Notes under the pieces: generated by a model
Told to the model about the DNA's origin: nothing
Databases searched by the model: none
What the model saw: the letters and a program-made list of their open reading frames with translations, nothing else
Shown: piece after piece, positions 47,153-63,710 of the stretch
Layout: each line of letters opens with the position of its first letter
Position numbering within the stretch: position 1 is the first letter of the stretch
Made by a program: the position numbers and the translations under genes
Assembly: GCA_964636285.1 (NCBI GenBank)
Contig: CAZWQF010000006.1
Coordinates: 938 to 64,937, forward strand
Source: an uncultured Candidatus Saccharibacteria bacterium
Lineage (GTDB): Bacteria > Patescibacteriota > WWE3 > UBA101185 > 2-01-FULL-41-18
Length of the DNA stretch: 64,000 bases
Direction: 5' to 3'

Positions 47153-47668
47153 ATGTATAAAATAATTATTGAGGTCTTTAGGGCAAAAATTGAGGGCAAT
47201 TCCATACTCTATACAAAACATGATGTGGTTGTAGGGGAGGATGACAAAAGAGACCCAGACGAACTAGTACACGAAGAGCTTATTAAGCACATGCATGTTG
47301 AAAACATAAATAAAGCTATCACGCACTCTACAAGCTGGAGGTTTCAAAAAGACGGGTCTATAGTTTTAACCTACCTTGTTTATTCGGACTTTGACGACCT
47401 TTCGAGCAAGTACGATCAGGATCACAAAATACACGCACTTAAGATTGAGGATATGGAAATAGCTAGAAGTAAATCCCACAGGTCACCAAGACCGGAAAAG
47501 ATTGAGGAAAAAAACGTAGTCTCCCACGCAATAAGACATCTAGCATTTTTAATTCAGGTTGGGGATAAGGATAGATACTCAAAGTTATTAGGTAGAAATG
47601 TTAGTAAACTTACCCAAATATTTCCACAAGTTTCAGGGAGAATTCGCAGTGACTTTTTTCCTATATGA
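47153..47668 (+). CDS. hypothetical protein, translationally coupled to the HAD gene
   Basis: The stop and start codons overlap (TGAGATG); 171 aa; no motif. Confidence 0.45.
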   Translation: MYKIIIEVFRAKIEGNSILYTKHDVVVGEDDKRDPDELVHEELIKHMHVENINKAITHSTSWRFQKDGSIVLTYLVYSDFDDLSSKYDQDHKIHALKIEDMEIARSKSHRSPRPEKIEEKNVVSHAIRHLAFLIQVGDKDRYSKLLGRNVSKLTQIFPQVSGRIRSDFFPI

Positions 47669-48792
47669 ACAATAATAAGACCTTTATAACACTTTTGATA
47701 ACAGCACTCTCTTTTTGTGGTGTAATTCTTTATGTTGCAACCCATAGAGGAACCCCTGTTATAGATTTTGAGGCCTATTATACAGGCGCAACTATTGTGA
47801 GGGAGGGGAATGTCAAAAAACTTTACGATGTTTCTACACAAAAGGAAGCCAGAAATAAAGTAATTGATAGAGTACCAAGGAACGGACTTCTAGCTTATAG
47901 AAACCCACCGTTATTAGCATACCTACTTGCCCCCTTGTCAAACTTAGATTTTGATTACGCTTATGTATCTTTTATATCTTTAACACTACTCTCGTTCTGC
48001 ATTTTCTGTTACATGTTGTATAAAAAGGGTTTTCTACAGTCAAACTCTGATATTTTAACTCTTTTTCTATATTTACCTGTTATTCATAGCATTATGATTG
48101 GTCAGGTGGCTCCCATATTATTGCTTTGTGTGGCAAGTAGCGTTTTTTTGATACAAAAAGGCAGATATAGATTAGCGGGGTTTATAATGACCTCTTTGCT
48201 ATTTAAACCACAGAGGTTTTTATTAGGTCTAATTTTTCTACTTTTTGTAAAAAATAAAAGCCAGTACGCTCAAGGGCTCCTGATAGGTTTTGTTATGTTC
48301 GCTTTCTTAAATGTTTTAATAGACCCTAGTTTAATTTACAAAATGCCACAATTTCTTGTAGCTACTCAGAACATGAGTAATGGTACAGACTTAGCTGACA
48401 GCTATAGCATTCAAAGCATTGTTAAGTTTATATTTCCAGCAATAAATGACACGGAAAACCTTAAAATAACCATCTTTGTGAGCATACTTGGTTTAGTTTC
48501 TTACACAGCTTATATTCTTAAGAAAGGGGTTAAAAATATTGAAGAGGGGATCATCAGCGCAATTCCTATATCTCTTCTACTCGGAGTGCATACAATGCCC
48601 GCGGATTATGTTCTTGTAGCCCTCCCCTTAATTATGTTAAAAAAGTGGGGAGAAAGAGTGGTGTTGCTAATTCTAATTTGCACCCCCTGGCTAGGCTTTA
48701 TAAAACACACATCCTGGTTAATCGTAGTAATACATGGTGCTGTTTTAATAGCAGTTTTAGCCAAAAACACTAAGATAAAGGCGAGGGCCTAA
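47665..48792 (+). CDS. hypothetical polytopic membrane protein (possible GT-C-like glycosyltransferase)
   Basis: Ten or more TM helices. Confidence 0.4.
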   Translation: MNNNKTFITLLITALSFCGVILYVATHRGTPVIDFEAYYTGATIVREGNVKKLYDVSTQKEARNKVIDRVPRNGLLAYRNPPLLAYLLAPLSNLDFDYAYVSFISLTLLSFCIFCYMLYKKGFLQSNSDILTLFLYLPVIHSIMIGQVAPILLLCVASSVFLIQKGRYRLAGFIMTSLLFKPQRFLLGLIFLLFVKNKSQYAQGLLIGFVMFAFLNVLIDPSLIYKMPQFLVATQNMSNGTDLADSYSIQSIVKFIFPAINDTENLKITIFVSILGLVSYTAYILKKGVKNIEEGIISAIPISLLLGVHTMPADYVLVALPLIMLKKWGERVVLLILICTPWLGFIKHTSWLIVVIHGAVLIAVLAKNTKIKARA

Positions 48793-49702
48793 AAGAAGGT
48801 TTTTTATAGGTAGCCATTAAATAAGCTAGTAAAAAACCAAATAGCACATCAGTAATATAATGCTCGCCCAACATTATTACAGAAAACCCTATCATAATAG
48901 GCACGAGCAAAACAAGCTTTATCCATTTATTTTTATAAAATCTGGTGATTAAAAAAAAGCTAGAAAAAGCAGGCCATGCAGTATGCAGAGAAGGGAGTGC
49001 TGCAACTGCGTTACCGTAAACAAAATAATAGGCAACAGTTGCTGTCTTTTGTGCAAAGGGGGAGAAAAAGTATAGGTATCTAACTATACCTAGGTCTAAG
49101 CTTGACGAAACATACCAAGGTGGAGCTACAGGTATTAAAAGGAACAACATCAAACTAACATAGGTCATTAAAATAAATCTGAGTGAATAAGATCTAAATA
49201 GATTGGAATCTCTATACCAAACAATAAAGGCAACACCAAAGGAATACACAAAAAAGAGTCCATAAAAAAAAGTGCATATGGGAACAAGCCAAATATTATG
49301 TACAAACAAACTCTGGAAAAAAGCAGTTGAAGTTTGCCCAAATAAATAGTTTTCAAGAAGGTAAACGCTAAATAAAGTCTGCTGTTTAAAAGGTGCTATA
49401 TCATCTACATACCCCCTCAGGAACTCGTACAGCAGGAAAGCAGCTACGAAAGGTATCCACACAGAAAGATACTGCTTGGATCTAGCTTTTTTCCAAGCAA
49501 GAACAAATAACATAAACTCTATCAATAAAATATCTGGTGTGGCCTTTATTACAAAAATGTTAACAAATACTAAATAGAATAAAATAGTAAATTTTGACAA
49601 GACTAGAGGGTTAAAGGACTTGCTTAGAAAATGGAGGACCCTTTGATTACTTGATGACATCTTGAGTCGTAATAAGGGCTTTTTCCGCCGCCTCGCCAGC
49701 AA
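48770..49702 (-). CDS. PAP2-superfamily membrane phosphatase
   Basis: PSLHTAW (PSGH-like) and GEHYITDV (SRxxxxxHxxxD-like) motifs. The true start is possibly the internal Met in MSSSNQRVLH. Confidence 0.5.
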   Translation of the reverse strand: MLARRRKKPLLRLKMSSSNQRVLHFLSKSFNPLVLSKFTILFYLVFVNIFVIKATPDILLIEFMLFVLAWKKARSKQYLSVWIPFVAAFLLYEFLRGYVDDIAPFKQQTLFSVYLLENYLFGQTSTAFFQSLFVHNIWLVPICTFFYGLFFVYSFGVAFIVWYRDSNLFRSYSLRFILMTYVSLMLFLLIPVAPPWYVSSSLDLGIVRYLYFFSPFAQKTATVAYYFVYGNAVAALPSLHTAWPAFSSFFLITRFYKNKWIKLVLLVPIMIGFSVIMLGEHYITDVLFGFLLAYLMATYKKPSFRPSPLS

Positions 49703-50978
49703 TGACAGAATTTACAGCAGTTTTCAAAGCATCTACCTCTTTGTCGTTTCCGGCTCTTGAAGCAAATACACCGCTTTTTGCAGTGTCGCCACTTCTCAAA
49801 TATGTATCTAAATAGGCGTTACCTGAAAGCTCAGACTGAAGAGACTTTAGAGCGTAAGGTTGGCCAAACGCCCTAACTTTTGATCCCTCACTGAAAAGCT
49901 TCCTCTGTGTATCCTCAGTAGTTAAAAATCTTAGGTAGTCCCAAGCCACTGCAGGATTCTTACTGCTTTTGGAAACGGCAACCATCCAAAAACTACCCCA
50001 ATTTACATCAATAGCCCTCCCCTCAAGATCTAAAGCCTTAGGAACTGACGCAACTCCCATATTGATTTGAGGATTTCTTGCAAGGATATTTAAAACTTCC
50101 CAGCTAGGTACAAAAGCCATAGCTACTTTTCTATCAGCAAAAGCTTCAACAGATTGAGGCAACACATCACTCCAAACCTTCTCTTGAGTAGCAAAGTTGG
50201 TATAAAAAGTTAAAGCGTCTGCAGCCGCTTTAGAGTTCAAATCATCGGGGACTTTTACAGAGGCCTGTGAAAAGAATAAACCTAAGATATCAGAGAAATG
50301 CTCAATGTTGTTTGCTGTACCAATCGCAGCACCAGCCTGAGATATAACACCGTCCTTATCTCTTTTTGTTAACGCTACGGCCATCTGTCTAAACTCCTCC
50401 CAAGATGTTGGAGGTGCAGAAAGGTTTGCCTCTGTAAACATGTCCCTGTTATAAACCAGAGCTAAGCCGTCATAACTAAGAGGAACAGCGTAGACAGATT
50501 TCTGATCCGCTGAAGAGCCCCAAGCCTTTGCTACAGGGTAGAACGCCTCGGCATTCACAACACCATCAGGAGCGGGGGCCAAGTTGTCCCTTAAGAAAGG
50601 CACCCAAGTATTGTGAACAACAATAATGTCTGGGGCAGTACCTTCGGAGAGTCTTGTAAAAACAGAGTCTTTGTAGTTCTTAAGGCTTCCTACAACAGAC
50701 CTCTCTTCGTAATTTATAGAAACATTTGGTTTTTCTTTTTTGTACTCATTATTTACAGAACCTATCAGATCTTTGGGCTCCCACAAACCCCACATGGTGA
50801 GTTCAACAGGTGTAGCCACATTAGCGCTATCTTTTTTTGCAAAAAACTTACCTATTACAGGTAAGTCTGAAACGGAACATGCTGTAAGAATTAAAGGGCT
50901 GAGTACTGCTAAAGCAATAAGCTTAAATTTTGGGCTTGGATTTTTCAATTTCAGCATCTTGTTTAATTGTAGATGCAC
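49647..50978 (-). CDS. ABC-transporter substrate-binding lipoprotein (solute-binding protein family 1, sugar-type)
   Basis: Lipobox LILTAC; ~440-aa periplasmic binding fold; no adjacent permease or ATPase genes. Confidence 0.5.
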   Translation of the reverse strand: MHLQLNKMLKLKNPSPKFKLIALAVLSPLILTACSVSDLPVIGKFFAKKDSANVATPVELTMWGLWEPKDLIGSVNNEYKKEKPNVSINYEERSVVGSLKNYKDSVFTRLSEGTAPDIIVVHNTWVPFLRDNLAPAPDGVVNAEAFYPVAKAWGSSADQKSVYAVPLSYDGLALVYNRDMFTEANLSAPPTSWEEFRQMAVALTKRDKDGVISQAGAAIGTANNIEHFSDILGLFFSQASVKVPDDLNSKAAADALTFYTNFATQEKVWSDVLPQSVEAFADRKVAMAFVPSWEVLNILARNPQINMGVASVPKALDLEGRAIDVNWGSFWMVAVSKSSKNPAVAWDYLRFLTTEDTQRKLFSEGSKVRAFGQPYALKSLQSELSGNAYLDTYLRSGDTAKSGVFASRAGNDKEVDALKTAVNSVIAGEAAEKALITTQDVIK

Positions 50979-52320
50979 CCATACCTAGTGTCAACCAAAA
51001 TAAAAGTTGCCCTTGCTGTAATGTAAGGAAATAATGGTCAAAATTCGAAATGAAAACAATCACGAACAAGAGTACAAAGTACAAAAAAACTCGTGGTCGT
51101 GAAAAATAGTAGAAACAGGAAACAAGCAACATACAAAAAAGTGTTAACGAAACAACCCCGCACTCAGAAAGGATAAGGAAAAATATGTTATGTACAGGCT
51201 GGATAAACCTAATAACCCCTCTAACTCCACCGTTATTATTTAGTTCAAGAGTAAACTTATTTAAGCCCACACCTGATAACGGATGTGACCCAAACATTTT
51301 TAGGGAAGCGTTTATCAAATCAACCCTTCTATAAACCGAATGGCTTTTGGATCCAAAACCCATATTTACTGCGGAGTAAACAGAAAGGGCGTTTATCAAT
51401 ACAAAAAATAAAACTACAACAATAAGTAACGCAGCGCGTAATTTTCCTACAGCGGCCTCTTTAACCGAGTGGCTACCTTTTGCCACATACTTAACAACAA
51501 GAAACCTGAGACCTATGTAGAGGCCAAAAAAGGCAATCCCAAGCAAAAACCCAAAAATTGCTACAGAGCCCTTAGTAAGTAGCAAAATAATCAAAGAATA
51601 AAGCCAAGCACAAACAACAAGCGGCTTTAACCCTTTTTTAAAAGTGTACATAAGTAAAACTAGCAATACAAAAACCAAAAAACCAGAAAGCACATTAGGG
51701 TGGGGGAATGTGCCGTACGGGGCTAGTTTAAGCTCGCCAAAGTAATCTTTATATACAAGACCTGGAGTTTTATAAGTAAAAGGTTGCTCACCAAAGAACA
51801 GGTAATTATTAAAAAAAGACCTACCGTTAACCCACTGAACTAATGAAATAAAACTTTGAAACAGTGCAGAACTGGCAAGCAAAGTAGATATCTTGTTAAA
51901 GTCGTCTTTGTTTGAGTAATTAAAATAGGTGTAGACAGCAAGGAGAGAAAAAAGCAAATACCTTCCAAATTTATAGAACGAAGGGGCGAATGAAAAATCC
52001 GTAGCAAAAAGCAAGCTCAGGATAAACATTAGAAGGAGGTAGCCAATAATGACAACCCTTCGATTAAAAAAACTTTTGAAAGTTAAAGCATAGGATTTAA
52101 AGCTAAAGTTATGAAATAAGTAAAGCCTTAAGAACTCATCAACCACCCATAAAGCTAAAGTAGCTAAAACAAGTATATCCGTGAGGTATATTGACGGGAT
52201 TAGATAGTCTACAAGGACACCGCTCACGTATGAGTTTGGAGAGATAAAGTTTTTTGCAAGGTTTACTGGTACTAAAAGTACAAGTAAATAAAACAGCCCT
52301 TTGTGTAAAAGTCTGAACAT
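50923..52320 (-). CDS. polytopic membrane protein, O-antigen ligase/polymerase-like (Wzy_C-like)
   Basis: About 12 TM helices with a large periplasmic loop. Confidence 0.35.
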   Translation of the reverse strand: MFRLLHKGLFYLLVLLVPVNLAKNFISPNSYVSGVLVDYLIPSIYLTDILVLATLALWVVDEFLRLYLFHNFSFKSYALTFKSFFNRRVVIIGYLLLMFILSLLFATDFSFAPSFYKFGRYLLFSLLAVYTYFNYSNKDDFNKISTLLASSALFQSFISLVQWVNGRSFFNNYLFFGEQPFTYKTPGLVYKDYFGELKLAPYGTFPHPNVLSGFLVFVLLVLLMYTFKKGLKPLVVCAWLYSLIILLLTKGSVAIFGFLLGIAFFGLYIGLRFLVVKYVAKGSHSVKEAAVGKLRAALLIVVVLFFVLINALSVYSAVNMGFGSKSHSVYRRVDLINASLKMFGSHPLSGVGLNKFTLELNNNGGVRGVIRFIQPVHNIFFLILSECGVVSLTLFCMLLVSCFYYFSRPRVFLYFVLLFVIVFISNFDHYFLTLQQGQLLFWLTLGMGASTIKQDAEIEKSKPKI

Positions 52321-52621
52321 ATCCTATATTTATCACTATAGAGACGTGTTATGCAACCTTTCCACAAACCTCCTCATATTACTTTCTTATATAATATATC
52401 AAGAAGCAGTTGTATTAGTGGTGTGGATATGTTGATTTCGGTAGTTTTAGGTCTTGGTTGTCACTAATACAATTTATATTTGAGTTTATACCTTTAGAAT
52501 GCTGTTATTCCTGCTGTTAACTACCCGAAACCCCCTGTTTTTTGTTGTACCCTCGTGTTTATAAGTTGTATGTTTTGGTGGATATCGTTGTGGATAAGTA
52601 GGGGTAGTTATCCACACTGCT
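52321..52621. promoter_or_regulatory. candidate oriC: DnaA-box cluster plus AT-rich unwinding element immediately 3' of dnaA
   Basis: Two perfect DnaA boxes in inverted orientation, TGTGGATAA at 52589-52597 and TTATCCACA at 52608-52616. Several one- or two-mismatch boxes elsewhere (52422-52430 and others). An AT-rich stretch at 52386-52405. Confidence 0.55.
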
Positions 52622-53989
52622 TTACGCACCTATATTCAAAGTTCTTTTAATGTTGACAACATCTGCTTTGATCCTTGTATCTGCATTAAGCTCCAGCTCT
52701 ACTTTTTCTGTTCCGTGCATTATAGTTGTGTGATCTCTTCCTCCAAGAATATCTCCAATTACCATATATGGCGTATCTGTAAACTTTTTTAAAAGATACA
52801 TTGATACTTGTCTTGGAACTACATACTCTTTAACCCTACTTTTTCCTTTTAGATCTGTAATTTTTATATTGTAATAAGCACACACAGTCTTTAAAAGTTC
52901 GTTTACATTTACAACCGGTTTACCAATATTTTGGCCTAAAAACTTTGCGCAGTACTCAACGGTGAGGTCTTGCCCTTCGGCTTTTGCTCTTGTAATGATC
53001 TGCAAAAAGTTTCCTTCCAGCTCTCTAATGTTTGTCTCAATGTTTTGTGCAATGTAGTCCACTACATTGTTTGGGATGCTTTCTCTCATTATGTCTCTCT
53101 TTTCTCTTAAAATGGCACTTCTTGTTTCCGAATCAGGCTTTTGCATATCAGCAACAATTCCGCTTGCAAACCTTGAAGTAATTCTTGCATCCAGCTTTGA
53201 TAATTCTTTTGGAGGTCTGTCTGAAGTAAGCACAATTTGCTTTTGAGACATGTAAAGAGCGTTAAAAGTGTGGAAAAATTCTTCTTGCGTGGCTTCTCCT
53301 CTTCCTGCAATAAATTGAATATCATCAATTAACAGCACATCTGTTTTTCTGAATTTGTCTCTAAACTTGTTTGCGGTATAGTTCTTATTCCTACCTGCCT
53401 GTATAGCCTCTATAAGCTCGTTCATGAAAGTTTCTGCTGTAGCATATACAACCCTAGCTTTTGGATTCTGTTTGAGCACAGCGTTCCCTATGGCCTGCAT
53501 TAGGTGTGTTTTACCAAGACCCACACCTGCATGAAGAAAAAATGGGTTGTAAACTTTTCCTGGGTTTTCAGAAACTGCAGTAGCAATTGCATGAGCAAGC
53601 CTGTTTGATGGCCCCACAATAAAGCTTTCGAATGTATATTTTGGGATCAGGCCTGCGTCTTCATACGCGTCTTTTGTAAGCGCTTGCTGCTTTTTTTGCA
53701 TGTCGTTGAAGAGTGGTAGGTCTTCAACTTTTGTTTGTACTTCTCTTTTTTCTACTCTGAATGTTATTTCAACGCTCGTTTTTGAAATTCTATCCACGGT
53801 TGATTTTAAAAGGCCGTAGAATTTTTTGTTTATTTGATCTGCAATGTATTCGCTTCCAACCACAACTTCAATGTTGTTCTCTTTTGTTTCTCCAAGCTCT
53901 GCATGAGAAAAGAACGACTTAAAGACGGCTTTTGATAGAACTGTTTCTAGTTCGCCTAATGTGGCTTTCCATAATTCAGAATGATTCAT
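52622..53989 (-). CDS. dnaA: chromosomal replication initiator protein DnaA
   Basis: AAA+ Walker A GVGLGKTHL; C-terminal DnaA-box binding domain; 455 aa. A perfect DnaA box TTATCCACA lies at 54027-54035 in its promoter region. Confidence 0.9.
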   Translation of the reverse strand: MNHSELWKATLGELETVLSKAVFKSFFSHAELGETKENNIEVVVGSEYIADQINKKFYGLLKSTVDRISKTSVEITFRVEKREVQTKVEDLPLFNDMQKKQQALTKDAYEDAGLIPKYTFESFIVGPSNRLAHAIATAVSENPGKVYNPFFLHAGVGLGKTHLMQAIGNAVLKQNPKARVVYATAETFMNELIEAIQAGRNKNYTANKFRDKFRKTDVLLIDDIQFIAGRGEATQEEFFHTFNALYMSQKQIVLTSDRPPKELSKLDARITSRFASGIVADMQKPDSETRSAILREKRDIMRESIPNNVVDYIAQNIETNIRELEGNFLQIITRAKAEGQDLTVEYCAKFLGQNIGKPVVNVNELLKTVCAYYNIKITDLKGKSRVKEYVVPRQVSMYLLKKFTDTPYMVIGDILGGRDHTTIMHGTEKVELELNADTRIKADVVNIKRTLNIGA

Positions 53990-54049
53990 AGGATTTTGGC
54001 AGGTGGTAACAATCTATTTATAAAGTTATCCACAATTTTGTCAATGATT

Positions 54050-54520
54050 TTATGAAGTTTTAAGCGCCTCTTTGCACAAGGTTTTAACTATAGGAAGTAT
54101 GTTTGAATCCTCAATTTCCTTATTGGTAAACCATTTAAGCTCTTGCCCCTCAAGCGGTTTTGGCTCCGCATCTGAGCTCACTAAATACGCAAAGCAAATA
54201 TTCTTGTGCTTTGTTTTTGTAGTCCCGTCGTTTTCTAAAGTGTGTCTATAAGAGGCGAATGGGGTTGGCAAAGATTCGTGCAGCTCCTCAGTTGGGAAAA
54301 GAGGTTTACTTATAAAATTAATTTCTACACCAAGCTCTTCCCTCACCTCTCTTTTGACTGCAATATGAGGTTCTTCAAAAGGCTCAACATGACCTCCTGG
54401 GAGTTTCCAGCCGATAGAGCTGTTTGAGCTCTTTTCGAGCAGAATTTTACCATCCTTTATAAGTGCAAAATTAGCTACATAATCTATTGGGAGTTTTTGA
54501 TCAAGTTCTACAAAATTCAT
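54050..54520 (-). CDS. NUDIX hydrolase (second copy)
   Basis: Nudix box GGHVEPFEEPHIAVKREVREELGVE. The start is likely at MNFVELD, since the upstream extension overlaps the VKOR gene. Confidence 0.7.
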   Translation of the reverse strand: MNFVELDQKLPIDYVANFALIKDGKILLEKSSNSSIGWKLPGGHVEPFEEPHIAVKREVREELGVEINFISKPLFPTEELHESLPTPFASYRHTLENDGTTKTKHKNICFAYLVSSDAEPKPLEGQELKWFTNKEIEDSNILPIVKTLCKEALKTS

Positions 54521-54939
54521 ACTTTTTGCATTTTCTGATAAATAGAAAGTCCTAAAATTCCAAGCATGGTAAATTGACACATAAGGCAAACTGGACAATA
54601 AACTTTTAGTTGAAAAAGCTCGATGTATGTAATTCTTAGGCAAAATAGCGTCCCAAACAAAGCCATTCCCAAAACCAGCTTAAACTTATTCTTTACAGCT
54701 CCAAACAAAATTATAATGTATCCAATAAGTCCGTATAAGGAGGTTGGAACTCCTAGCGTTTTTGAAACCTCTCCGCTAATCACAGCATCACAATTTACAT
54801 TCTGGCTTATTGTACATAGCCTAACTTTAGGCTGAAAAATAAAGTTATAAAAAAGATAGCTTGCAAGAAGAACTCCAAAAACTGAAAGAAAAATTATGGA
54901 CTTTTTGATCTGACCTTTCATGACCAGATTATACTCCAA
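54517..54939 (-). CDS. VKOR-family membrane protein (second copy)
   Basis: Loop Cys pair C...C and TM CPVC; 4 TM; 140 aa. Confidence 0.6.
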   Translation of the reverse strand: MEYNLVMKGQIKKSIIFLSVFGVLLASYLFYNFIFQPKVRLCTISQNVNCDAVISGEVSKTLGVPTSLYGLIGYIIILFGAVKNKFKLVLGMALFGTLFCLRITYIELFQLKVYCPVCLMCQFTMLGILGLSIYQKMQKV

Positions 54940-54941
54940 AA

Positions 54942-55286
54942 TTATTTTTTGCTTTTTGTAAACGAAAACAGAACGCTGTTCACAAGGGAAAGTACTACTG
55001 CAAATAAAAGCGCGCTTAAAAACCCGTTTACCCTAAACCCCGGCACAAAGTAATCAGTAATCATTACCATTGCAGCAGATATGACAAGACTAAACAGCCC
55101 AAGAGTTAATATGCTTAGAGGTAATGTAAGAATTTCCAGTATAGGTTTAATTACTGCGTTTGAGACTGCCAAGACAACAGACACTACAATAGCAATAAAA
55201 AACCCATCCACATGTACTCCAGGTATTAAGTAGGCACAAATCATGACTGCAACGCCGCTAAGAAGAAGATTTAAAATTGTTTTCAT
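54942..55286 (-). CDS. small 4-TM membrane protein of the YvlD / phage-holin-4_2 (PF04020) family
   Basis: 114 aa with four hydrophobic helices; sequence pattern of the PF04020 family. Confidence 0.5.
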   Translation of the reverse strand: MKTILNLLLSGVAVMICAYLIPGVHVDGFFIAIVVSVVLAVSNAVIKPILEILTLPLSILTLGLFSLVISAAMVMITDYFVPGFRVNGFLSALLFAVVLSLVNSVLFSFTKSKK

Positions 55287-55293
55287 CGTATTA

Positions 55294-58200
55294 TTATACC
55301 TCCGATCCGATTATTCCTGTGACATTTGTTGTTCTGTTAAGTTTTCCCCAAGAAACATTAGACCCCTTAATAGCAGATAGCACAACTTTGATGCTAATAA
55401 AATAAAAAAGGAACCTATATAAAACTCTTTGAAGAGGAAGAAGCCTTACCAAATACTGTTCCTCCTTTTCCTCAAGCATTAACGCTGCCACTGAAACAAG
55501 GTAATCCACAAACAGAAACACAAGGTAGAAGTAGGCAATTTTTCCAAGACCTTCAAAAGAAGCACTTGGGTGTTGGAATTTCTGAAACAGGTCTATTGCA
55601 ACCAAAAACATTGCATATACGTCTAAAATTGGCGCTACCAAAGGAAAAGCTATTTGAAACACAATTACGTTGGGTACTACTACAAGTCCAAGAAACTTAT
55701 ACTTTGGCTTGAGAATCACATCCTGGTGTTTCCATATTGCTTGAAATGTGCCAAACATCCATCTATATCTTTGCTTGATAAAGTCCCTAATGTTTTCTGG
55801 AGCTTCTGTATAACTTATCGCCCTTTCTTCATACTCAACCTTGTATCCAAGTTTTAAAACTTTAAGAGTTAATTCGGCGTCTTCTGCAAGAGTGTCCGTT
55901 CCAAACCCGCCCACCTTCTCTAGCAGGTCTTTTCTCCACACACCTATTGCACCAGGCACCACTGTAATGCTGTTAAGCAACGCAAATGCTCTTCGATCAA
56001 GATTTTGACTTGTTACATACTCAAGGGCTTGGAACTTTGTTAACAAATTTACTCTGTTTCCTACCTTTGCATTTCCTGCTACCGCTCCAACTGAAGTGTC
56101 TTTGAATCGCCTGACAATTTTGCTGACAGCATTTGCTTTTAGAAGAGTGTCTGCGTCCAAAACCATTATTAACTCTGCACTACTTTGGTTTACTGCAAAG
56201 TTGATAGCGCTAGATTTGCCTCCTCCATTCGTTTGAAAAATTTTAACTTTGGGATTTCCTTTAAACGCTGCTTTTGTAATTTCAAATGTTGAGTCTGTAG
56301 ATCCATCATCTACCACAATAACCCCAAGGTTGTTGTAAGTTGATCTTAAGATGTTATCCACAGTCCTTACAATAACTTTTGCCTCGTTTAAGGCTGGTAT
56401 AACAATAGAAATCGAAGGGGTAAACTTGGCGTCATATACTTTTTTCCTTGAGCTAACCTTTTGAATTACAGCAAGAACAAATATTAAAATTTGTCTGGAA
56501 ATACCAAGCATAATTCCAACTACAAAAAGATTTGTGACAAACTTATAAAAGAGATACGCAAGGGTAAAACCCATATTACTTGAATAGTTAATTAGAGGTT
56601 TGGTGGCTTTGGCAGGAGGCATGATCTGATCCCTTGTTAGACCCATCAATTCTGAAACTGTCACAAACTCATACCCTTGCTCTTTGAGGTTTGAAATTAT
56701 GTAAGGAAGTGCCTGGATTGTTGCGGTTCTATCTCCACCACCGTCATGTAAAAGTACAATGTTCCCATCGCCGTTTTTCACCTTCTTTTCTACATCCTGC
56801 GCAATTTCAAGTGCGCTTGGTTTTGCCCAGTCTTTTGGGTCAACATTCATTCCCACTGTAAAGTAGCCTAACTCTCCTGCGGTAATGAGAGTTTTTAATT
56901 GCGAAGGGGTTTGCGGTTCTACATCCTCACCGTACGGAGGTCTAAATAGCAGGGTGCTTCTTCCTGTTGCACTTTCGATTAGTTTTTGGGTGGCATTTAT
57001 CTCAAGAAGTGCCTCTTTGGTTGAAGTAAGTTCAAGGTTGGGGTGGGAGAAGGTGTGGTTTCCAATTTCGTTTCCTTCGTTATATATCCTTTGCAAAATG
57101 TCCCTATTAGCATTTCCTAGCGCTCCAATAATAAAAAACGTACCACGCACCCCTTGGTTTTTGAGAGTGTCCAAAATCTTAGTTGTATATTTTTTTGTAG
57201 GTCCGTCATCAAAAGTTAGAGCCACTTTTTTTGAGACTAGTCCGTATCTTTGAACGGTGTATGGGTTTGGGGCTGTCACAATTTTTTCAGATAATACTTT
57301 GGTGGTAGGGTCTTCTGTAATTTCCCTTGACCCCATTGTTGGCATCGCTTTTATTTTTATAGTCTCTCCGGTTCCAAGGTAGTTTATCCCGTACCCGTAC
57401 TGCATCTCTTGCATATTCCCAACAGCCTGCCCGCCATTATTTAAGTCTTTGGTAAATAGCGCCCATATCTGTGGGTCTTCGGATCCGAGTCTCCACATTG
57501 CAAAACCTTTAACCCCAGAGTTCTGGGCCTCTTTTATCTGGTTATATGCGGTGATACCATCTAAAAACCAAAGAGTATGTGCGGAAAATCCGTTATCCAC
57601 ATATGTAAAATAAGGGTTTGCGCTGATTGAATCCCAGCTGAATGTAGCTTTTGCTAGCTTGGCTTTGGTCATAACTTCGTCGTAGCTGAGGCTTACTGCA
57701 TTTGTTGTCCCTGCTTGCCAGTCGTACCCATACTGTCCCAGAGCCACAACAACTTTTTCCGCAGGTATTTGCTGAAGTCTCCAAGCAAGCTTCTCTTTAA
57801 ACCAATTTTGTGACGAAATAGCCCCAGGCTCTCCGCCTGCCCAGTGTTCGTCATAGGCCATTAAAATCAAATAATCGCTGTACTCTGAAAGACTAAACCC
57901 GCTAAAGTCGTCGTCATCAAGAGGGATTGAAGCAGAGACAGCAAGCCCTTCGGATTTGAATCTTGCATACAGGTCACGCATAAAAAAGTGAAACGAATTC
58001 ATGTCCTCGGGGTACATATTCTCAAAATCAATGCTTACCCCATCAAACTGACCCTCCTTAACAAACTTAACCGCGTTACTTATAAGCTCCTGCTTTTTTG
58101 TTTCGTTTTTAAGAAATATTGCTGTAAGCTCTGGATCAAAGCTTTGGGTATCAGAGTTGTAATTATTTATGAGAGGCACAATTTTTATTGAAGAGTTTTC

Positions 58201-58686
58201 TCTCCTAACGTAATTAGTAACTTCTTTTTGATAATCTTTGTTGTCTGAAATCACGTCCCCGTCCTTTGAAATGTGCCCCCATTCAGGTGTTAGTGTTGTA
58301 ATGCCCTTGAGGTTTTGTTTTAAAGACGCAAAGCTTGCGGGGTCCCAGTTTACAAAATATCCCACAACTTCTTTTTGAGGAGTTTTATCCGTGGTTTTAG
58401 GTGTGGGTTGATAAGCAATATTTATACTTTGGTTGCTGTGACCTGTTTGTTGAAGGGCATCTACAGTTAAACCTCTGCTTGGCGCCCCGCCTTTTCTTGC
58501 AATTAGGCTACTCGGGTCTTCAATCCCAAAACTGTTTTGAAATTCGGGTATGTTTAAAATAGAGTACCCCATTGCGGTTACTGTGGTTGCAACAAAAATT
58601 GCAAAAACAAAAACTACCGCTAGAAATATATTCCATCTGCTTCTTTTTGAAGAATAAAAGATTGGTTTGACCTCAGAAGACTTCAT
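55294..58686 (-). CDS. multidomain exopolysaccharide enzyme: TM anchor + GH18-like glycoside hydrolase + CE4 (NodB) polysaccharide deacetylase + GT2 processive glycosyltransferase
   Basis: GH18 DxxDxDxE-type DGVSIDFENMYPED. CE4 motifs TFDDGP, HTFSHP, RPPYG, LLHDGGG. GT2 motifs VDDGSTDST, LDADT and Q(R)YRW. 1130 aa with internal and C-terminal TMs. Confidence 0.75.
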   Translation of the reverse strand: MKSSEVKPIFYSSKRSRWNIFLAVVFVFAIFVATTVTAMGYSILNIPEFQNSFGIEDPSSLIARKGGAPSRGLTVDALQQTGHSNQSINIAYQPTPKTTDKTPQKEVVGYFVNWDPASFASLKQNLKGITTLTPEWGHISKDGDVISDNKDYQKEVTNYVRRENSSIKIVPLINNYNSDTQSFDPELTAIFLKNETKKQELISNAVKFVKEGQFDGVSIDFENMYPEDMNSFHFFMRDLYARFKSEGLAVSASIPLDDDDFSGFSLSEYSDYLILMAYDEHWAGGEPGAISSQNWFKEKLAWRLQQIPAEKVVVALGQYGYDWQAGTTNAVSLSYDEVMTKAKLAKATFSWDSISANPYFTYVDNGFSAHTLWFLDGITAYNQIKEAQNSGVKGFAMWRLGSEDPQIWALFTKDLNNGGQAVGNMQEMQYGYGINYLGTGETIKIKAMPTMGSREITEDPTTKVLSEKIVTAPNPYTVQRYGLVSKKVALTFDDGPTKKYTTKILDTLKNQGVRGTFFIIGALGNANRDILQRIYNEGNEIGNHTFSHPNLELTSTKEALLEINATQKLIESATGRSTLLFRPPYGEDVEPQTPSQLKTLITAGELGYFTVGMNVDPKDWAKPSALEIAQDVEKKVKNGDGNIVLLHDGGGDRTATIQALPYIISNLKEQGYEFVTVSELMGLTRDQIMPPAKATKPLINYSSNMGFTLAYLFYKFVTNLFVVGIMLGISRQILIFVLAVIQKVSSRKKVYDAKFTPSISIVIPALNEAKVIVRTVDNILRSTYNNLGVIVVDDGSTDSTFEITKAAFKGNPKVKIFQTNGGGKSSAINFAVNQSSAELIMVLDADTLLKANAVSKIVRRFKDTSVGAVAGNAKVGNRVNLLTKFQALEYVTSQNLDRRAFALLNSITVVPGAIGVWRKDLLEKVGGFGTDTLAEDAELTLKVLKLGYKVEYEERAISYTEAPENIRDFIKQRYRWMFGTFQAIWKHQDVILKPKYKFLGLVVVPNVIVFQIAFPLVAPILDVYAMFLVAIDLFQKFQHPSASFEGLGKIAYFYLVFLFVDYLVSVAALMLEEKEEQYLVRLLPLQRVLYRFLFYFISIKVVLSAIKGSNVSWGKLNRTTNVTGIIGSEV

Positions 58687-58706
58687 TCTCTGCTATAATG
58701 CGCTGA

Positions 58707-59540
58707 ATGAAATCGCGCAAATACCTGCTTTTTTTAATACCTATAGTTATCATAGTTTTACTAACTTATATCATTATTAGACAAAGTTCAAGAATTATGA
58801 TGAGTCCTGTAGTTAAATCTAGTTTGACAGGAGGTTCCACAAAACTTTTGGAGATAGTGGAAGCACTTGAGTCGAGCGAATCGAGCACATCAAGCAAAGG
58901 ATCAAAGATTCCAAATCCCCTAGCCTTTGTTGCTGACCTTTTTAAAGAAAAATACCCTGTACACAAAGATATAAGCACTACCTTTTTTTGGGTTGGAGAA
59001 CCTTCCGATGAGGATAACCATTTTATTCCTAACAAAGCGAGCGCTTGGGATGACGAATGGATGAAGCATTACGGTGGTCCTGACGATCCCGAAAAAAGAA
59101 AAAACCTCCTTCCCGAAAACTTTAAGCCAAAAGAAAACCCATTTTACTTTGCGCTTCCCTACAATGATTTTGATGAAGATGGAAAAAGACGAAAAGATTT
59201 AAGTAAGGTTGTATATTGGTTTGACCAAAAAAAGTGGGGTAAAGAGGAGTCTATGCTAAAAAATAGGTGGATAAAAATAACCAAGGGGGATAAAGACGCC
59301 TATGCGCAGTGGGAGGATGTAGGTCCTTTTGGAGAAGATGACGCCAAGTATGTCTTTGGTAAGTCCGCTCCAAAAAATAAAGACAACAAAAGTGCAGGTC
59401 TTGATGTCTCGCCTGCCGTAAAAGAATACTTAGGTCTTAAAGATTTGGATAAAACAGATTGGCAATTTGTTGATGAAAAGGACGTACCTGATGGCCCTTG
59501 GAAAGAGGTTATAACCAAATCTCAGGTTAATTGGAAATAA
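58707..59540 (+). CDS. hypothetical secreted or membrane-anchored protein
   Basis: N-terminal TM; Ser-rich linker; no motif. Confidence 0.45.
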   Translation: MKSRKYLLFLIPIVIIVLLTYIIIRQSSRIMMSPVVKSSLTGGSTKLLEIVEALESSESSTSSKGSKIPNPLAFVADLFKEKYPVHKDISTTFFWVGEPSDEDNHFIPNKASAWDDEWMKHYGGPDDPEKRKNLLPENFKPKENPFYFALPYNDFDEDGKRRKDLSKVVYWFDQKKWGKEESMLKNRWIKITKGDKDAYAQWEDVGPFGEDDAKYVFGKSAPKNKDNKSAGLDVSPAVKEYLGLKDLDKTDWQFVDEKDVPDGPWKEVITKSQVNWK

Positions 59541-59554
59541 CTTTAATTATGTCA

Positions 59555-59591
59555 AAAGCGCCGTTGGGTTTTTTGCCCGCCGGCGCTTTTT
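59555..59591. terminator. bidirectional rho-independent terminator (AGCGCCG-loop-CGGCGCTTTTT)
   Basis: A GC-rich stem flanked by T5 on the plus strand and A/T-rich sequence on the minus strand. Confidence 0.55.
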
Positions 59592-59602
59592 GAGACTTTT
59601 TG

Positions 59603-62225: not shown

Positions 62226-63710
62226 GTGAAATTTGCGGTTGTTCTTACGGCACTCTACATTCTTTTTTGCCTCCTGACGTTCAAACACTTTGGAGTTACA
62301 TCTGACGAATATGTAGAGTACCAAAGCGGAAAAGCACTTCTTCATTATTATCAAACAGGAAGTCAATCAAAAAACTTTAATATTTCAGAAAGGCACTTCC
62401 CCACAGAAAGCACCTATTTTAGAGGGCACCTCGCACTTTTTAGCTTTTTAAACCCCAAAGGCTACTATGAAAACTACCATCTATTAAATATGCTTTTTGC
62501 TCTCCCAATATTTCTAATGTTCTATGCGTTGTTACTGCATACCTATAAAGATCAAAAAATTGCTTTTGTTGGAACCCTCTTCCTTTTTGCCACGCCGCGA
62601 TTCTTAGGAGACCTACCTGCCAACCCAAAAGACGTGCCTTTTGCAGTGTTTTACTTTTTAACCCTTGGGGCCATCTACTTATTTCATCAGAAAAAACAAA
62701 ATTTTATTATCAGTTCTGTTGCAATAGGGCTTCTAATAGGAGTAACCACATCTTTTAGATTAGTTGGGGCGTCCTTATTTGTTGTCATGTTTTTTTACTA
62801 TGCTAAAAGATCACCAGTTACTGCTTTACGAGACTCCGTCATTTCATTTTTTATTTCAATTTTAGCCTTGGTTTTACTGCTTCCTTTGTTTTCTCAGGGG
62901 GTTTTGGAAGGCCTTAAAGTTTTGGTTGAAAGTAGTACTAACTTTGAATATTGGAATAATAAGATGCTGTTTATGGGCAAGTTTCTTTCAAAAGAACAAA
63001 GACCTTTTTACTACTTACCTGTGTGGCTTGCTATCACAACTCCTCTGTACCAGATCGTCCTTTTAGTGATATTGCCGTTCCTAATATATTTTCGTAAAGT
63101 AAAAAGAGCAGGCCTGCTATATTTCTTTGGGTTCGCATTTACAGTTAATCTTTTAGCTTACTTGTTAATTAATCCTGTGATCTACAATGGACTTAGGCAC
63201 TTTTTATTTTTAGTTCCAATCCTATCGCTTTTAGCCTGTCTTTCAGCAATTGATCTGTTTACGTTTCTGAATTCCAGGGCAGGCAACTTCAAATTCGTCC
63301 ATTTAATTTTAATATCATTTCTCTTTCTCGTTACGGTAATCAACATTACCAAATCGCACCCTTATGAATACATTTATTTTAACGAATTATCAGGAGGCTT
63401 AAAAAAAGCGATAGGGAATTACGACACAGATTATTGGGGAGCTTCGTACAAAGAAATGTCAGAATGGCTTTTAAAGAACCCTGCAAAAACTCGTTCGATT
63501 AATGTGTACACGTGCGATATGCCTTTTGCAGTCAGCTATTACTCAAAAAAATTATTTCAAGTTGTTTCTGACGAGTCCGAAGCTGATTTTATAGTTTGTG
63601 ACGTGGACAATGTTCCTCAGAAAAAATATGATCTGCCTGTAGTTTATTCTGTTGATAGGGGTGGGGTTTCATTAGGCAGTGTGTTTGATAGCAGCTCGCT
63701 TAAGAAGTAG
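62226..63710 (+). CDS. GT-C fold membrane glycosyltransferase (ArnT/PMT-like, GT39/GT83-like)
   Basis: Eleven or more TMs; a first-loop DE motif (TSDEYVEY); 494 aa. Confidence 0.5.
   Translation: MKFAVVLTALYILFCLLTFKHFGVTSDEYVEYQSGKALLHYYQTGSQSKNFNISERHFPTESTYFRGHLALFSFLNPKGYYENYHLLNMLFALPIFLMFYALLLHTYKDQKIAFVGTLFLFATPRFLGDLPANPKDVPFAVFYFLTLGAIYLFHQKKQNFIISSVAIGLLIGVTTSFRLVGASLFVVMFFYYAKRSPVTALRDSVISFFISILALVLLLPLFSQGVLEGLKVLVESSTNFEYWNNKMLFMGKFLSKEQRPFYYLPVWLAITTPLYQIVLLVILPFLIYFRKVKRAGLLYFFGFAFTVNLLAYLLINPVIYNGLRHFLFLVPILSLLACLSAIDLFTFLNSRAGNFKFVHLILISFLFLVTVINITKSHPYEYIYFNELSGGLKKAIGNYDTDYWGASYKEMSEWLLKNPAKTRSINVYTCDMPFAVSYYSKKLFQVVSDESEADFIVCDVDNVPQKKYDLPVVYSVDRGGVSLGSVFDSSSLKK

Follow-up and report, generated by a model that had tools for sequence, protein, structure and literature searches.

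A single-chain GH18–CE4–GT2 membrane protein of Patescibacteria as a probable self-contained machine for a processed GlcNAc polymer

Locus and integrity of the reading frame

The window analyzed here is a 64,000-nucleotide stretch of Patescibacteria DNA, in which positions 55294..58686 of the minus strand are occupied by a single open reading frame with an ATG start that encodes 1130 amino acids (ORF list and translation). Taxonomy was read from DnaA homologues. The coordinates and length are exactly those of the original prediction, and every motif quoted in it is present. The Pfam annotation that it had called for places GH18 (aa 107–401), CE4 (aa 485–688) and GT2 (aa 757–1027) in that order, all above their cut-offs. 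The features of the gene and of its two neighbors are as follows.

55294..58686, minus strand: whole gene of the GH18–CE4–GT2 membrane protein (ORF list, Pfam and NCBIfam matches, identical ORF in an independent assembly)
58555..58641, minus strand: TM1, N-terminal signal-anchor helix, aa 16–44 (hydropathy peak 2.64; AF2 helix 16–44)
58381..58542, minus strand: low-confidence tether between TM1 and GH18, aa 49–102 (pLDDT <50; no consensus residues in the family alignment)
57451..58371, minus strand: GH18 (beta/alpha)8 barrel of the SleL/YaaH/YdhD subgroup, aa 106–412 (PF00704; PDB sequence and fold matches)
57241..57399, minus strand: small conserved beta-rich linker domain from GH18 to CE4, aa 430–482 (AF2 strands 435–482)
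56623..57234, minus strand: CE4 NodB-type de-N-acetylase, aa 485–688 (PF01522; five sequence motifs)
56449..56598, minus strand: TM2, within helix aa 697–746, bringing the chain back to the cytoplasm (hydropathy; AF2 helix)
55729..56418, minus strand: GT-A catalytic domain, predicted cytoplasmic, of a processive GT2 synthase, aa 757–986 (Pfam GT2 families; motifs)
55366..55695, minus strand: C-terminal membrane helices, aa 998–1107, presumed polysaccharide-conducting channel (hydropathy; AF2; PgaC alignment)
58707..59540, plus strand: probable partner X, 277 aa and membrane-anchored, its conserved ~195-aa domain assigned to the DPBB fold; divergent, its start 20 bp from the synthase start
54942..55286: holin-like neighbor, PF04020 (Phage_holin_4_2), Pfam 111.6 bits; start codon 7 nt past the synthase stop

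A triple fusion might be an artefact (a chimeric assembly, or a frameshift or stop codon that was overlooked), or else the gene might be decaying, with inactive outer domains; we found no evidence in support of either and regard the probability as negligible. The same ORF, intact and identical, is present in the independent Logan assembly of run SRR12762304. Furthermore, approximately 200 individually listed relatives, drawn from 2317 protein matches and at least 593 metagenome loci, align over 88–100% of the query length, except for a few ended by contig edges: this range holds for the best 120 of the 2317 protein matches, and nearly full-length matches lie at most of the 80 metagenome loci. 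Because of the identical independent ORF and these near-full-length relatives, the assembly fusion that the original prediction had named as its own refutation is excluded, and the 94–100% conservation of active-site residues in all three domains likewise led us to reject the artefact. Conservation of the fusion in related genomes, also raised there, is borne out by the best 120 of the 2317 homologues, all of which are tri-domain.

The three domains and their membrane setting

The GH18 domain matches Glyco_hydro_18 (PF00704) over aa 107–401 with 90.4 bits against a cut-off of 29.6, spanning profile positions 2–315 of 317, and its AF2 barrel (aa 106–412) has GH18 structures as top Foldseek matches (E 1e-23). 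The best PDB matches in both sequence and fold are 4s3j, 4s3k and 3cz8. The motif FDGVSIDFE at 214–222 (D215-G-V-S218-I-D220-F-E222) retains the DxxDxDxE signature with Ser in place of the middle Asp; the predicted catalytic pair D220-x-E222 is present and invariant, and D215 is not conserved across the GH18–CE4–GT2 family (consensus AGISIDFE). The same reduced acid motif is shared by the SleL/YaaH/YdhD subgroup. Residues D220, E222, Y278, D279 and W398 are invariant in an alignment of 40 relatives (41–48% identical to the query) and 94–99% conserved in 89. SleL/YaaH and YdhD, the nearest GH18 relatives (4s3j, 4s3k, 3cz8), have the same barrel fold, with the D-x-E inside [IF]DFE, but at 22–25% identity; they are soluble spore proteins, SleL/YaaH reportedly acting on spore-cortex peptidoglycan, whereas the window barrel is predicted to be tethered to the membrane and belongs to the same chain as a synthase. 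Both solved SleL/YaaH chains also carry ~120 extra N-terminal residues before the aligned barrel, which we take to be LysM repeats. The beta-rich domain that follows the barrel matched no Pfam family over aa 430–482, and its residues G438, G440, E441, P449, G452, R454, P473 and G482 are invariant.

The CE4 domain matches Polysacc_deac_1 (PF01522) over aa 485–587 with 113.4 bits (cut-off 23.1). All five CE4 motifs are found: TFDD 491–494 (within LTFDDGP 490–496), HTFSH 544–548 (HTFSHP 544–549), RPPY 582–585 (FRPPYG 581–586), DPKDW 616–620 and LLH 645–647. Their key residues are invariant in the 40 relatives, with D493, D494, H544, H548, R582, D616, D619 and H647 conserved at 98–99% in the 89. 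The best PDB matches are 7y51/7fbw, PdaC and PgdA.

The GT2 domain is recognized by Glyco_tranf_2_3, Glycos_transf_2 and Glyco_trans_2_3 (aa 757–1027, 99–110 bits against cut-offs of 23–27) and has fold matches to the hyaluronan synthases 7sp7 and 8smm. Its motifs, DDG 793–795, DAD 844–846, AED 934–936 (ED 935–936) and QRYRW 972–976, are followed by three long hydrophobic helices, the pattern of processive synthases of the BcsA, HAS, PgaC and NodC type. The motifs are invariant in the 40 relatives and 97–100% conserved in the 89, with D793, D794, D844, D846, E935, D936, Q972, R973, R975 and W976 among the conserved catalytic residues. The hydrophobic segments at 996–1035, 1049–1073 and 1088–1106 (AF2 helices 998–1038, 1045–1071 and 1077–1107) presumably form the polysaccharide channel and precede a conserved W1113-x4-R1118 tail. 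All three activities are under selection, given that the catalytic residues of each domain do not vary among the 40 relatives and are 94–100% conserved in the 89.

The topology that the original prediction had proposed to check is predicted to be N-in, with GH18 and CE4 outside and GT2 inside. The positive-inside rule holds at both TM1 and TM2: three K/R lie ahead of TM1 and none behind it (hydropathy and charge analysis), which by prediction places the short Lys/Arg-rich N-terminus in the cytoplasm, and the hydrophobic segment of TM2 (709–744) has one K/R before it and four after. In the AF2 model (pLDDT 83.8) two separate soluble blocks flank the unbroken helix 697–746, and the aa 49–102 tether is modeled as probably disordered. 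An N-in arrangement also fits the relative P0081, which has a Ser/Thr kinase domain of cytoplasmic type N-terminal to its TM1 equivalent.

Neighboring genes

No conserved operon around the synthase emerged from the clustering of 475 neighbor ORFs from 83 loci, only lineage-specific partners: a GT-C-like membrane protein at 26 loci, many of them from soil, GH75 in two cyanobacteria, and X in CPR-type loci, including the window. Promoter and terminator scans of the locus gave results at chance level. The original prediction had drawn attention to the holin-like gene; its PF04020 identity and its adjacency here both stand, and the functional link does not. Of the 83 loci, only those from this genome (in the window and in L001, a second assembly) have a PF04020 gene next to the synthase, and none is present in the gene lists of L005–L009. 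The genes around the synthase (VKOR, NUDIX, dnaA) are not phage genes, and no lysis or prophage setting was found. The holin-like gene was rejected as a system component because its adjacency is not conserved.

The divergent neighbor X is probably a recurrent partner of the synthase in related genomes. It is 52% identical to the product of the gene adjoining the Moraniibacteria synthase, and a homologue lies directly upstream of the GH18–CE4–GT2 gene in L006, L091/L092, L095 and L096. Searches of Pfam, NCBIfam, PHROG and the PDB returned no sequence match, and none of its 2181 homologues has a Pfam domain. Its assignment to the DPBB fold comes from weak Foldseek matches of the AF2 model (pLDDT 80), at E values of 1e-3 to 1e-1, to kiwellin, a barwin-like protein, PA4485 and expansins. 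A remote relationship of X to GH75 was rejected, as neither BLASTP nor hhalign supported it.

Linkage of the polymer

The framing of the product as PNAG, chitin or chitosan in the original prediction was fair. PgaC (beta-1,6) and NodC (beta-1,4) are equally distant from the GT2 core in sequence, and the comparison between them is indecisive in the catalytic core. We lean slightly, and with somewhat less than even confidence, toward a beta-1,4 chitin- or chitosan-like polymer over beta-1,6 PNAG, to which we give a lower but substantial probability. To our knowledge, characterized GH18 members cleave beta-1,4 GlcNAc linkages, and we know of none that cleaves beta-1,6 links. Beta-1,4 is also favored by the resemblance of the CE4 domain to NodB and by a chitosanase gene of family GH75 found beside the synthase in cyanobacteria. 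In Calothrix and Brasilonema this gene immediately precedes that of the synthase, and in Brunnivagina it is joined N-terminally; in the latter case the gene caller may have merged two genes, as a GH75 domain at the N-terminus does not match the predicted topology. The likeness to NodC and NodB lies in GlcNAc chemistry and in sequence, with 35% identity of the CE4 domain to Sinorhizobium meliloti NodB (202 aa) and 28% of the GT2 catalytic core to NodC (240 aa), and the Nod products are beta-1,4. Both matches stay below the equivalog level, however (NodC, TIGR04242, 106 bits against 550; NodB, TIGR04243, 119.1 against 240). Moreover, the products of NodC are short oligomers and NodB is a soluble enzyme of the cytoplasm, whereas the window CE4 is predicted to be extracytoplasmic and is fused, with a GH18 domain in addition.

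The alternative is a PNAG system of the MatB, IcaAB or PgaBC type, in which GT2 would make beta-1,6 poly-GlcNAc, CE4 would partly deacetylate it and GH18 would correspond in function to the GH153 domain of PgaB, a GH18 linkage specificity not described before; we put the probability of this at rather less than even. The best NCBIfam model is PgaC_IcaA (TIGR03937), colinear over model positions 18–387 of 407, but its 189.9 bits lie far under the equivalog cut-off of 422.3, marking the GT2 domain as a relative and not an equivalog. The BLASTP alignment with E. coli PgaC covers the catalytic domain and continues across the C-terminal membrane helices (356 aa, 127 bits, E 2e-35), and in tblastn with aa 690–1130 PgaC scores 130 bits and NodC 100, the latter aligning in the catalytic core only; identity in that core is nevertheless no higher to PgaC than to NodC (27% versus 28%). 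In E. coli PgaC and PgaB (IcaA and IcaB in Staphylococcus), a processive GT2 synthase is likewise combined with a CE4 deacetylase and a TIM-barrel hydrolase that processes deacetylated polymer, but these are separate proteins that work with PgaD, c-di-GMP control and the PgaA porin. The combination of a PgaB-type deacetylase with GH153 was not found in the window protein: its hydrolase is GH18, and its CE4 has no significant match in PgaB (BLASTP aligns only the TFDDG region, E 0.09, and the CE4 domain has no tblastn match). The PgaB hydrolase, which is joined to the CE4 domain and cuts only deacetylated polymer, is structurally near GH18 and GH20 barrels (PMC5933820), in keeping with PNAG; the cyanobacterial GH75 association suits beta-1,4 better.

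MatB (SCO2962) of Streptomyces, a bifunctional PNAG synthase/deacetylase with CE4 outside, one transmembrane helix and GT2 inside (PMC5972031), has this core layout. The architecture and predicted topology of aa 485–1130 of the window protein agree with the published description. In MatB GT2 is likewise PgaC-like and CE4 PgdA/NodB-like, and no outer-membrane export partner is needed; the window protein adds TM1, the tether, GH18 and the beta linker domain N-terminal to CE4. MatB lacks GH18 and is partnered by MatA, a protein without known domains, together with which it is required for PNAG production (PMC5972031). The lean toward beta-1,4 is weak because this sole characterized CE4–GT2 fusion makes beta-1,6 PNAG although its CE4, too, is similar to enzymes that act on beta-1,4 links.

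Proposed mechanism and the cell wall as an alternative target

We consider it likely that the protein is a self-contained, synthase-dependent exopolysaccharide machine that makes, partly deacetylates and trims a GlcNAc polymer on one polypeptide. This logic, put forward in the original prediction, is the best reading, because the motif sets are 94–100% conserved in 89 relatives and the predicted topology agrees with it; domains, motifs and membrane setting are supported, and from them we infer the mechanism. The cytoplasmic GT2 domain would polymerize UDP-GlcNAc processively and thread the chain out through its own C-terminal helix bundle; CE4, held beside the channel by TM2, would strip some of the N-acetyl groups from the emerging chain outside the membrane; and GH18, on its ~55-residue flexible linker from TM1, would cut the polymer at GlcNAc residues, trimming it, releasing it or setting its size. 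The parts played by GH18 and CE4 would be those of PgaB (CE4 and GH153) and PelA (hydrolase and deacetylase), there separate proteins. In the CPR lineage the DPBB-fold neighbor would probably assist by binding or cleaving glycan. Against the model, the loci compared revealed neither a conserved operon nor an export component or a regulatory domain.

An objection to the machine model comes from SleL/YaaH, the GH18 structures nearest to this domain: they reportedly act on the peptidoglycan of spores, such that the outer domains might target the wall rather than the product. GH18 and CE4 would then open or deacetylate the wall locally for passage or anchoring of the GT2 product or, in a variant suggested by the episymbiotic CPR lifestyle, act on the wall of a host cell; we judge this improbable. 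It draws on the nearest GH18 structures being spore-cortex peptidoglycan N-acetylglucosaminidases (SleL/YaaH, with YdhD; Lambert and Popham 2008), on the peptidoglycan deacetylases PdaC and PgdA among the nearest CE4 structures, on the reach to the wall that the ~55-residue tether would allow GH18, and on the expansin/RlpA-like fold of X, some members of whose class bind or cleave walls. However, the CE4 domain is equally close to NodB, an enzyme of free chitooligosaccharides, and the triple fusion is kept in monoderms and diderms, with their very different envelopes. The MatB CE4 is also PgdA-like and yet was assigned to PNAG by its authors (PMC5972031), and a hydrolase and a deacetylase acting on the product are the established pattern in PgaB (PMC5933820) and, reportedly, in PelA. 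Processing of the nascent polymer is the reading that we retain.

Distribution and significance

The original prediction had called the architecture unusual, which overstates the case: proteins with these three parts form a widespread family that has been catalogued before, not a one-off. There are 2317 homologues, and the metagenome loci that carry the architecture number at least 593, alongside 32 plasmid records; carriers include Bacillus mycoides, Deinococcus, sphingomonads, Prevotella and Sulfitobacter. The proteins of B. mycoides (WP_002191911.1) and Calothrix (BAZ17452.1) share the architecture at 42–44% identity over 90–99% of the length. IMG product names already describe the family by all three domains, and GH18–CE4–GT2 was listed for Acetivibrio cellulolyticus (ZP_09465738) in 2012 (PMC3413522), our only source for that member. 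No biochemical study of any member was found in the searchable literature, which otherwise offers in silico remarks on GT-fused PgaB/IcaB-like clades and on cyanobacterial NodB/NodC homologues. What is new here is the Patescibacteria member and the pointer to a lineage-specific partner of an unannotated family, of modest value for the window itself.

The wider interest lies in the family. PNAG, Pel and cellulose systems are normally multi-protein, whereas synthesis, deacetylation and cleavage are here placed on one chain, so that the family offers a compact model of how modification and translocation are coupled and might allow partly deacetylated GlcNAc polymers to be made from a single gene. 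It is abundant in soil metagenomes and present in culturable Bacillus, Deinococcus and sphingomonads. A bolder proposal, which we hold to be doubtful but worth stating, is that GH18–CE4–GT2 proteins are a widespread bacterial beta-1,4 chitin/chitosan-type synthase with built-in processing, paired in the ultrasmall CPR bacteria with a previously unannotated, highly conserved DPBB-fold family shared with DPANN archaea and Thermotogota, and that the pair might build or remodel a host-attachment surface layer. If true, bacteria would have a class of beta-1,4 polymer so far established in them only as Nod-factor oligomers. Knowledge of the linkage would tell whether chitosan-like polymers are common bacterial products.

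Integrity and domain composition of the synthase

The open reading frame at 55294..58686 on the minus strand has an ATG start codon and is translated into 1130 residues. Pfam places GH18, CE4 and GT2 domains on its product (hereafter the synthase), each with a score far over the curated threshold, as the original prediction had assigned them, and every catalytic motif quoted there was found in the translation. The identical ORF is present in a separate assembly of run SRR12762304, and relatives from many samples match the synthase over almost its entire length; the ORF is thus intact, and neither a chimeric assembly nor an overlooked frameshift can account for it.

Segments of the synthase, from hydropathy and the AlphaFold2 model, with Pfam matches
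before aa 16: N-terminus, short and basic
aa 16-44: TM1 (hydropathy and AlphaFold2)
between TM1 and GH18: tether of roughly 55 residues, low-confidence in AlphaFold2
aa 106-412: GH18 barrel (AlphaFold2); Pfam Glyco_hydro_18 at aa 107-401, 90.4 bits
aa 430-482: small, conserved beta domain (AlphaFold2)
about aa 487-688: CE4 domain (AlphaFold2); Pfam Polysacc_deac_1 at aa 485-587, 113.4 bits
aa 697-746: single long helix with TM2, one basic residue before and four after
about aa 759-986: GT-A domain, ending in the QRYRW helix; several overlapping Pfam GT2 models at aa 757-1027, about 100-110 bits
aa 998-1107: three long hydrophobic helices, C-terminal to GT-A
C-terminal tail: short and conserved, containing W1113 and R1118

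Membrane topology was predicted from hydropathy, the positive-inside rule and the AlphaFold2 model (mean pLDDT 83.8). The prediction places the GT2 domain in the cytoplasm, the side on which UDP-sugars are found, and the GH18 and CE4 domains outside. In the metagenomic relative P0081, the far N-terminal end is a Ser/Thr kinase domain, an arrangement that makes sense only if the N-terminus is cytoplasmic.

Conservation and distribution of the architecture

Among 40 relatives with 41-48% identity to the synthase, active-site residues are invariant in GH18 (D220-x-E222, Y278, D279 and W398), in CE4 (TFDD 491-494, H544, H548, RPP 582-584, D616, D619 and H647) and in GT2 (DDG 793-795, D844-x-D846, E935-D936 and Q972-R-x-R-W976), and these positions are 94-100% conserved when the comparison is widened to 89 sequences. 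At the sequence level, this conservation indicates purifying selection on all three activities across the family.

The triple fusion had been regarded as an unusual architecture; it is instead catalogued and widespread. A protein search with the synthase returned 2317 homologues at E <= 1e-10, and all 120 of those listed (about 1030-1560 aa) contain the GH18, CE4 and GT2 Pfam domains; named taxa among the matches listed include Cyanobacteria, Chloroflexota, Acidobacteriota, Moraniibacteriota and Syntrophobacteraceae. A metagenome scan gave at least 593 confirmed relatives, with a near-full-length match in most of the 80 metagenome loci kept and a few interrupted by contig ends. The query is covered to at least 80% in 32 plasmid records, including those of Bacillus mycoides, Deinococcus, Sphingobium/Novosphingobium, Prevotella nigrescens and Sulfitobacter; among the records listed, most copies are annotated 'glycosyltransferase' or 'glycosyl transferase family 2' and a few are unannotated. 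IMG product names for the homologues already concatenate all three COG descriptions, and 'GH18-CE4-GT2' was given for Acetivibrio cellulolyticus in a 2012 genome paper (PMC3413522). No functional test of any GH18-CE4-GT2 member was found in the literature, and the synthase is a further member of a known, functionally uncharacterized architecture.

Genomic setting and neighbors

The closest named homologues of dnaA belong to a 'Patescibacteria group bacterium' (71% identity), Parcubacteria and candidate division WWE3, a taxonomy that identifies the window as DNA of a CPR bacterium.

Genes around the synthase
47665..52320: further envelope-glycan genes, encoding a solute-binding protein, a PAP2 phosphatase, a GT87 (GT-C) protein and, at 50923..52320, a Wzy_C/O-antigen-ligase-like membrane protein
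52622..53989, minus strand: dnaA
54050..55286, minus strand: tight run after the synthase of a four-TM PF04020 protein, a VKOR homologue and a NUDIX hydrolase
58707..59540, plus strand: X, 277 aa
59981..61378, plus strand: 465-aa protein with an RNase_T/DEDD 3'-5' exonuclease domain and a GIY-YIG (Cho/UvrC-like) nuclease region; NCBIfam matches to 'DEDD exonuclease domain-containing protein' and 'excinuclease Cho', all under cut-offs
62226..63710, plus strand: 494-aa ORF, no Pfam or NCBIfam match at E <= 0.01

The region 52300..59600 is probably the replication origin region. Six perfect DnaA boxes (TTATCCACA) occur in the window, of which five, at 52589, 52608, 54026, 56354 and 57593, flank dnaA, two of them falling antisense within the synthase ORF. 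The cumulative GC skew is lowest near 58-59.5 kb; here, at the 20 bp that separate the synthase from X, the genes switch from the minus to the plus strand.

The PF04020 'Phage_holin_4_2' gene, 7 nt downstream of the synthase, had been mentioned as its holin-like neighbor. Across the 83 loci compared, it adjoins the synthase in this genome only, and it was absent from five further synthase-homologue contexts inspected; we regard the adjacency as incidental. The gene matches one PHROG of unknown function weakly, and no phage context was seen around it in the 54050..55286 region.

The same 83 loci revealed no conserved operon around GH18-CE4-GT2 genes, and three lineage-specific partners: a GT-C-like membrane protein, GH75 in cyanobacteria, and X. 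The first, a multi-pass protein of 500-640 aa with weak resemblance to PMT_2/Glyco_transf_22/DUF2142, is encoded no more than a few genes away from the synthase homologue at 26 of these loci, mostly as its immediate neighbor (L015-L017, for example L016:9221-11134, and 23 other metagenome loci); it does not occur in the window.

X is encoded upstream of the synthase and divergently, the start codons being 20 bp apart, and consists of an N-terminal anchor helix and a strikingly conserved domain of roughly 195 aa. It gave no Pfam, NCBIfam or PDB sequence match, and none of its 2181 homologues (47-73% identity; CPR bacteria, DPANN archaea, Thermotogota (Marinitoga) and Ca. Solincola) carries a Pfam domain. 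It shares 52% identity with the product of a gene adjoining a Moraniibacteria synthase homologue, and X homologues lie directly upstream of, and co-directional with, GH18-CE4-GT2 genes at L006 (7014-7892), L091/L092 (L091:8001-8885), L095 (6001-6825) and L096 (6001-6867), where the surrounding genes vary; in Marinitoga, X stands alone. The AlphaFold2 model of X (pLDDT 80) gave weak, consistent matches to the double-psi beta-barrel proteins kiwellin, barwin-like protein, PA4485, bacterial expansins and cerato-platanin, tentatively suggesting a barwin/expansin/RlpA-like fold, a class that binds or cleaves polysaccharides. From this weak fold match and the recurrent adjacency, we propose that, in this lineage, X assists the synthase as an extracytoplasmic accessory.

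Proposed activity and product

The synthase would make a GlcNAc-based polymer, partly deacetylate it and trim it, all on one chain. This mechanism, put forward in the original prediction, stays the best-supported reading and is probably correct, with precedents in MatB, PgaB and PelA. Streptomyces MatB has the CE4(out)-TM-GT2(in) layout that forms the core of the synthase; the matAB locus is required for PNAG, and MatB was compared by its authors to IcaA and IcaB combined (PMC5972031). A 2020 survey describes PgaB/IcaB-like clades fused to a GT and lacking export partners (PMC7112194). PgaB combines deacetylase and TIM-barrel hydrolase domains, the latter acting on the nascent polymer and cleaving only deacetylated PNAG (PMC5933820). 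A similar pairing of deacetylase and hydrolase is described for PelA.

The GH18 domain groups with the SleL/YaaH/YdhD subgroup (sequence E about 1e-27, Foldseek E 1e-23), with which it shares a reduced [IF]DFE acid motif; Lambert and Popham reportedly identified SleL in 2008 as a peptidoglycan N-acetylglucosaminidase. The CE4 domain is NodB/PgdA-like, its 202-aa alignment with NodB of S. meliloti showing 35% identity, and its closest solved structures are 7y51/7fbw, PdaC and PgdA. This kinship to SleL and PgdA would suit GH18 and CE4 domains that act on peptidoglycan, not on the product of their own GT2 domain. However, the PgaB and PelA precedents argue against such a target, as does the retention of the fusion in monoderm and diderm lineages alike, and we consider it unlikely.

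For a synthase acting on its own polymer, beta-1,6 PNAG is one candidate product, with MatB as a precedent and PgaC/IcaA as the best curated model for the GT2 part (NCBIfam PgaC_IcaA, 189.9 bits, under its cut-off of 422.3). The alignment of the GT2 part to E. coli PgaC spans 356 aa, C-terminal membrane helices included, at 27% identity, and the catalytic core of the GT2 part is as close to NodC (28% over 240 aa); the membrane-embedded part resembles hyaluronan synthases in its predicted fold. Pointing instead to a beta-1,4 linkage, the CE4 domain is NodB-like and not PgaB-like, E. coli PgaB showing no significant similarity to it. To our knowledge, characterized GH18 enzymes use substrate-assisted catalysis to cleave beta-1,4 GlcNAc linkages. 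In the heterocystous cyanobacteria Calothrix (L008:6811-7644) and Brasilonema (L050), the synthase homologue has a gene for a GH75 chitosanase immediately upstream, and in the Brunnivagina homologue P0017 a GH75 domain is joined N-terminally, although this may be a merged gene call, as an N-terminal GH75 is at odds with the predicted topology. We lean slightly toward a beta-1,4 chitin/chitosan-like product; the preference is weak because the CE4 domain of MatB is likewise beta-1,4-like, though the matAB locus yields PNAG. If the family does turn out to synthesize a chitosan-type polymer with beta-1,4 linkages, this would be of greater interest than the window member by itself.
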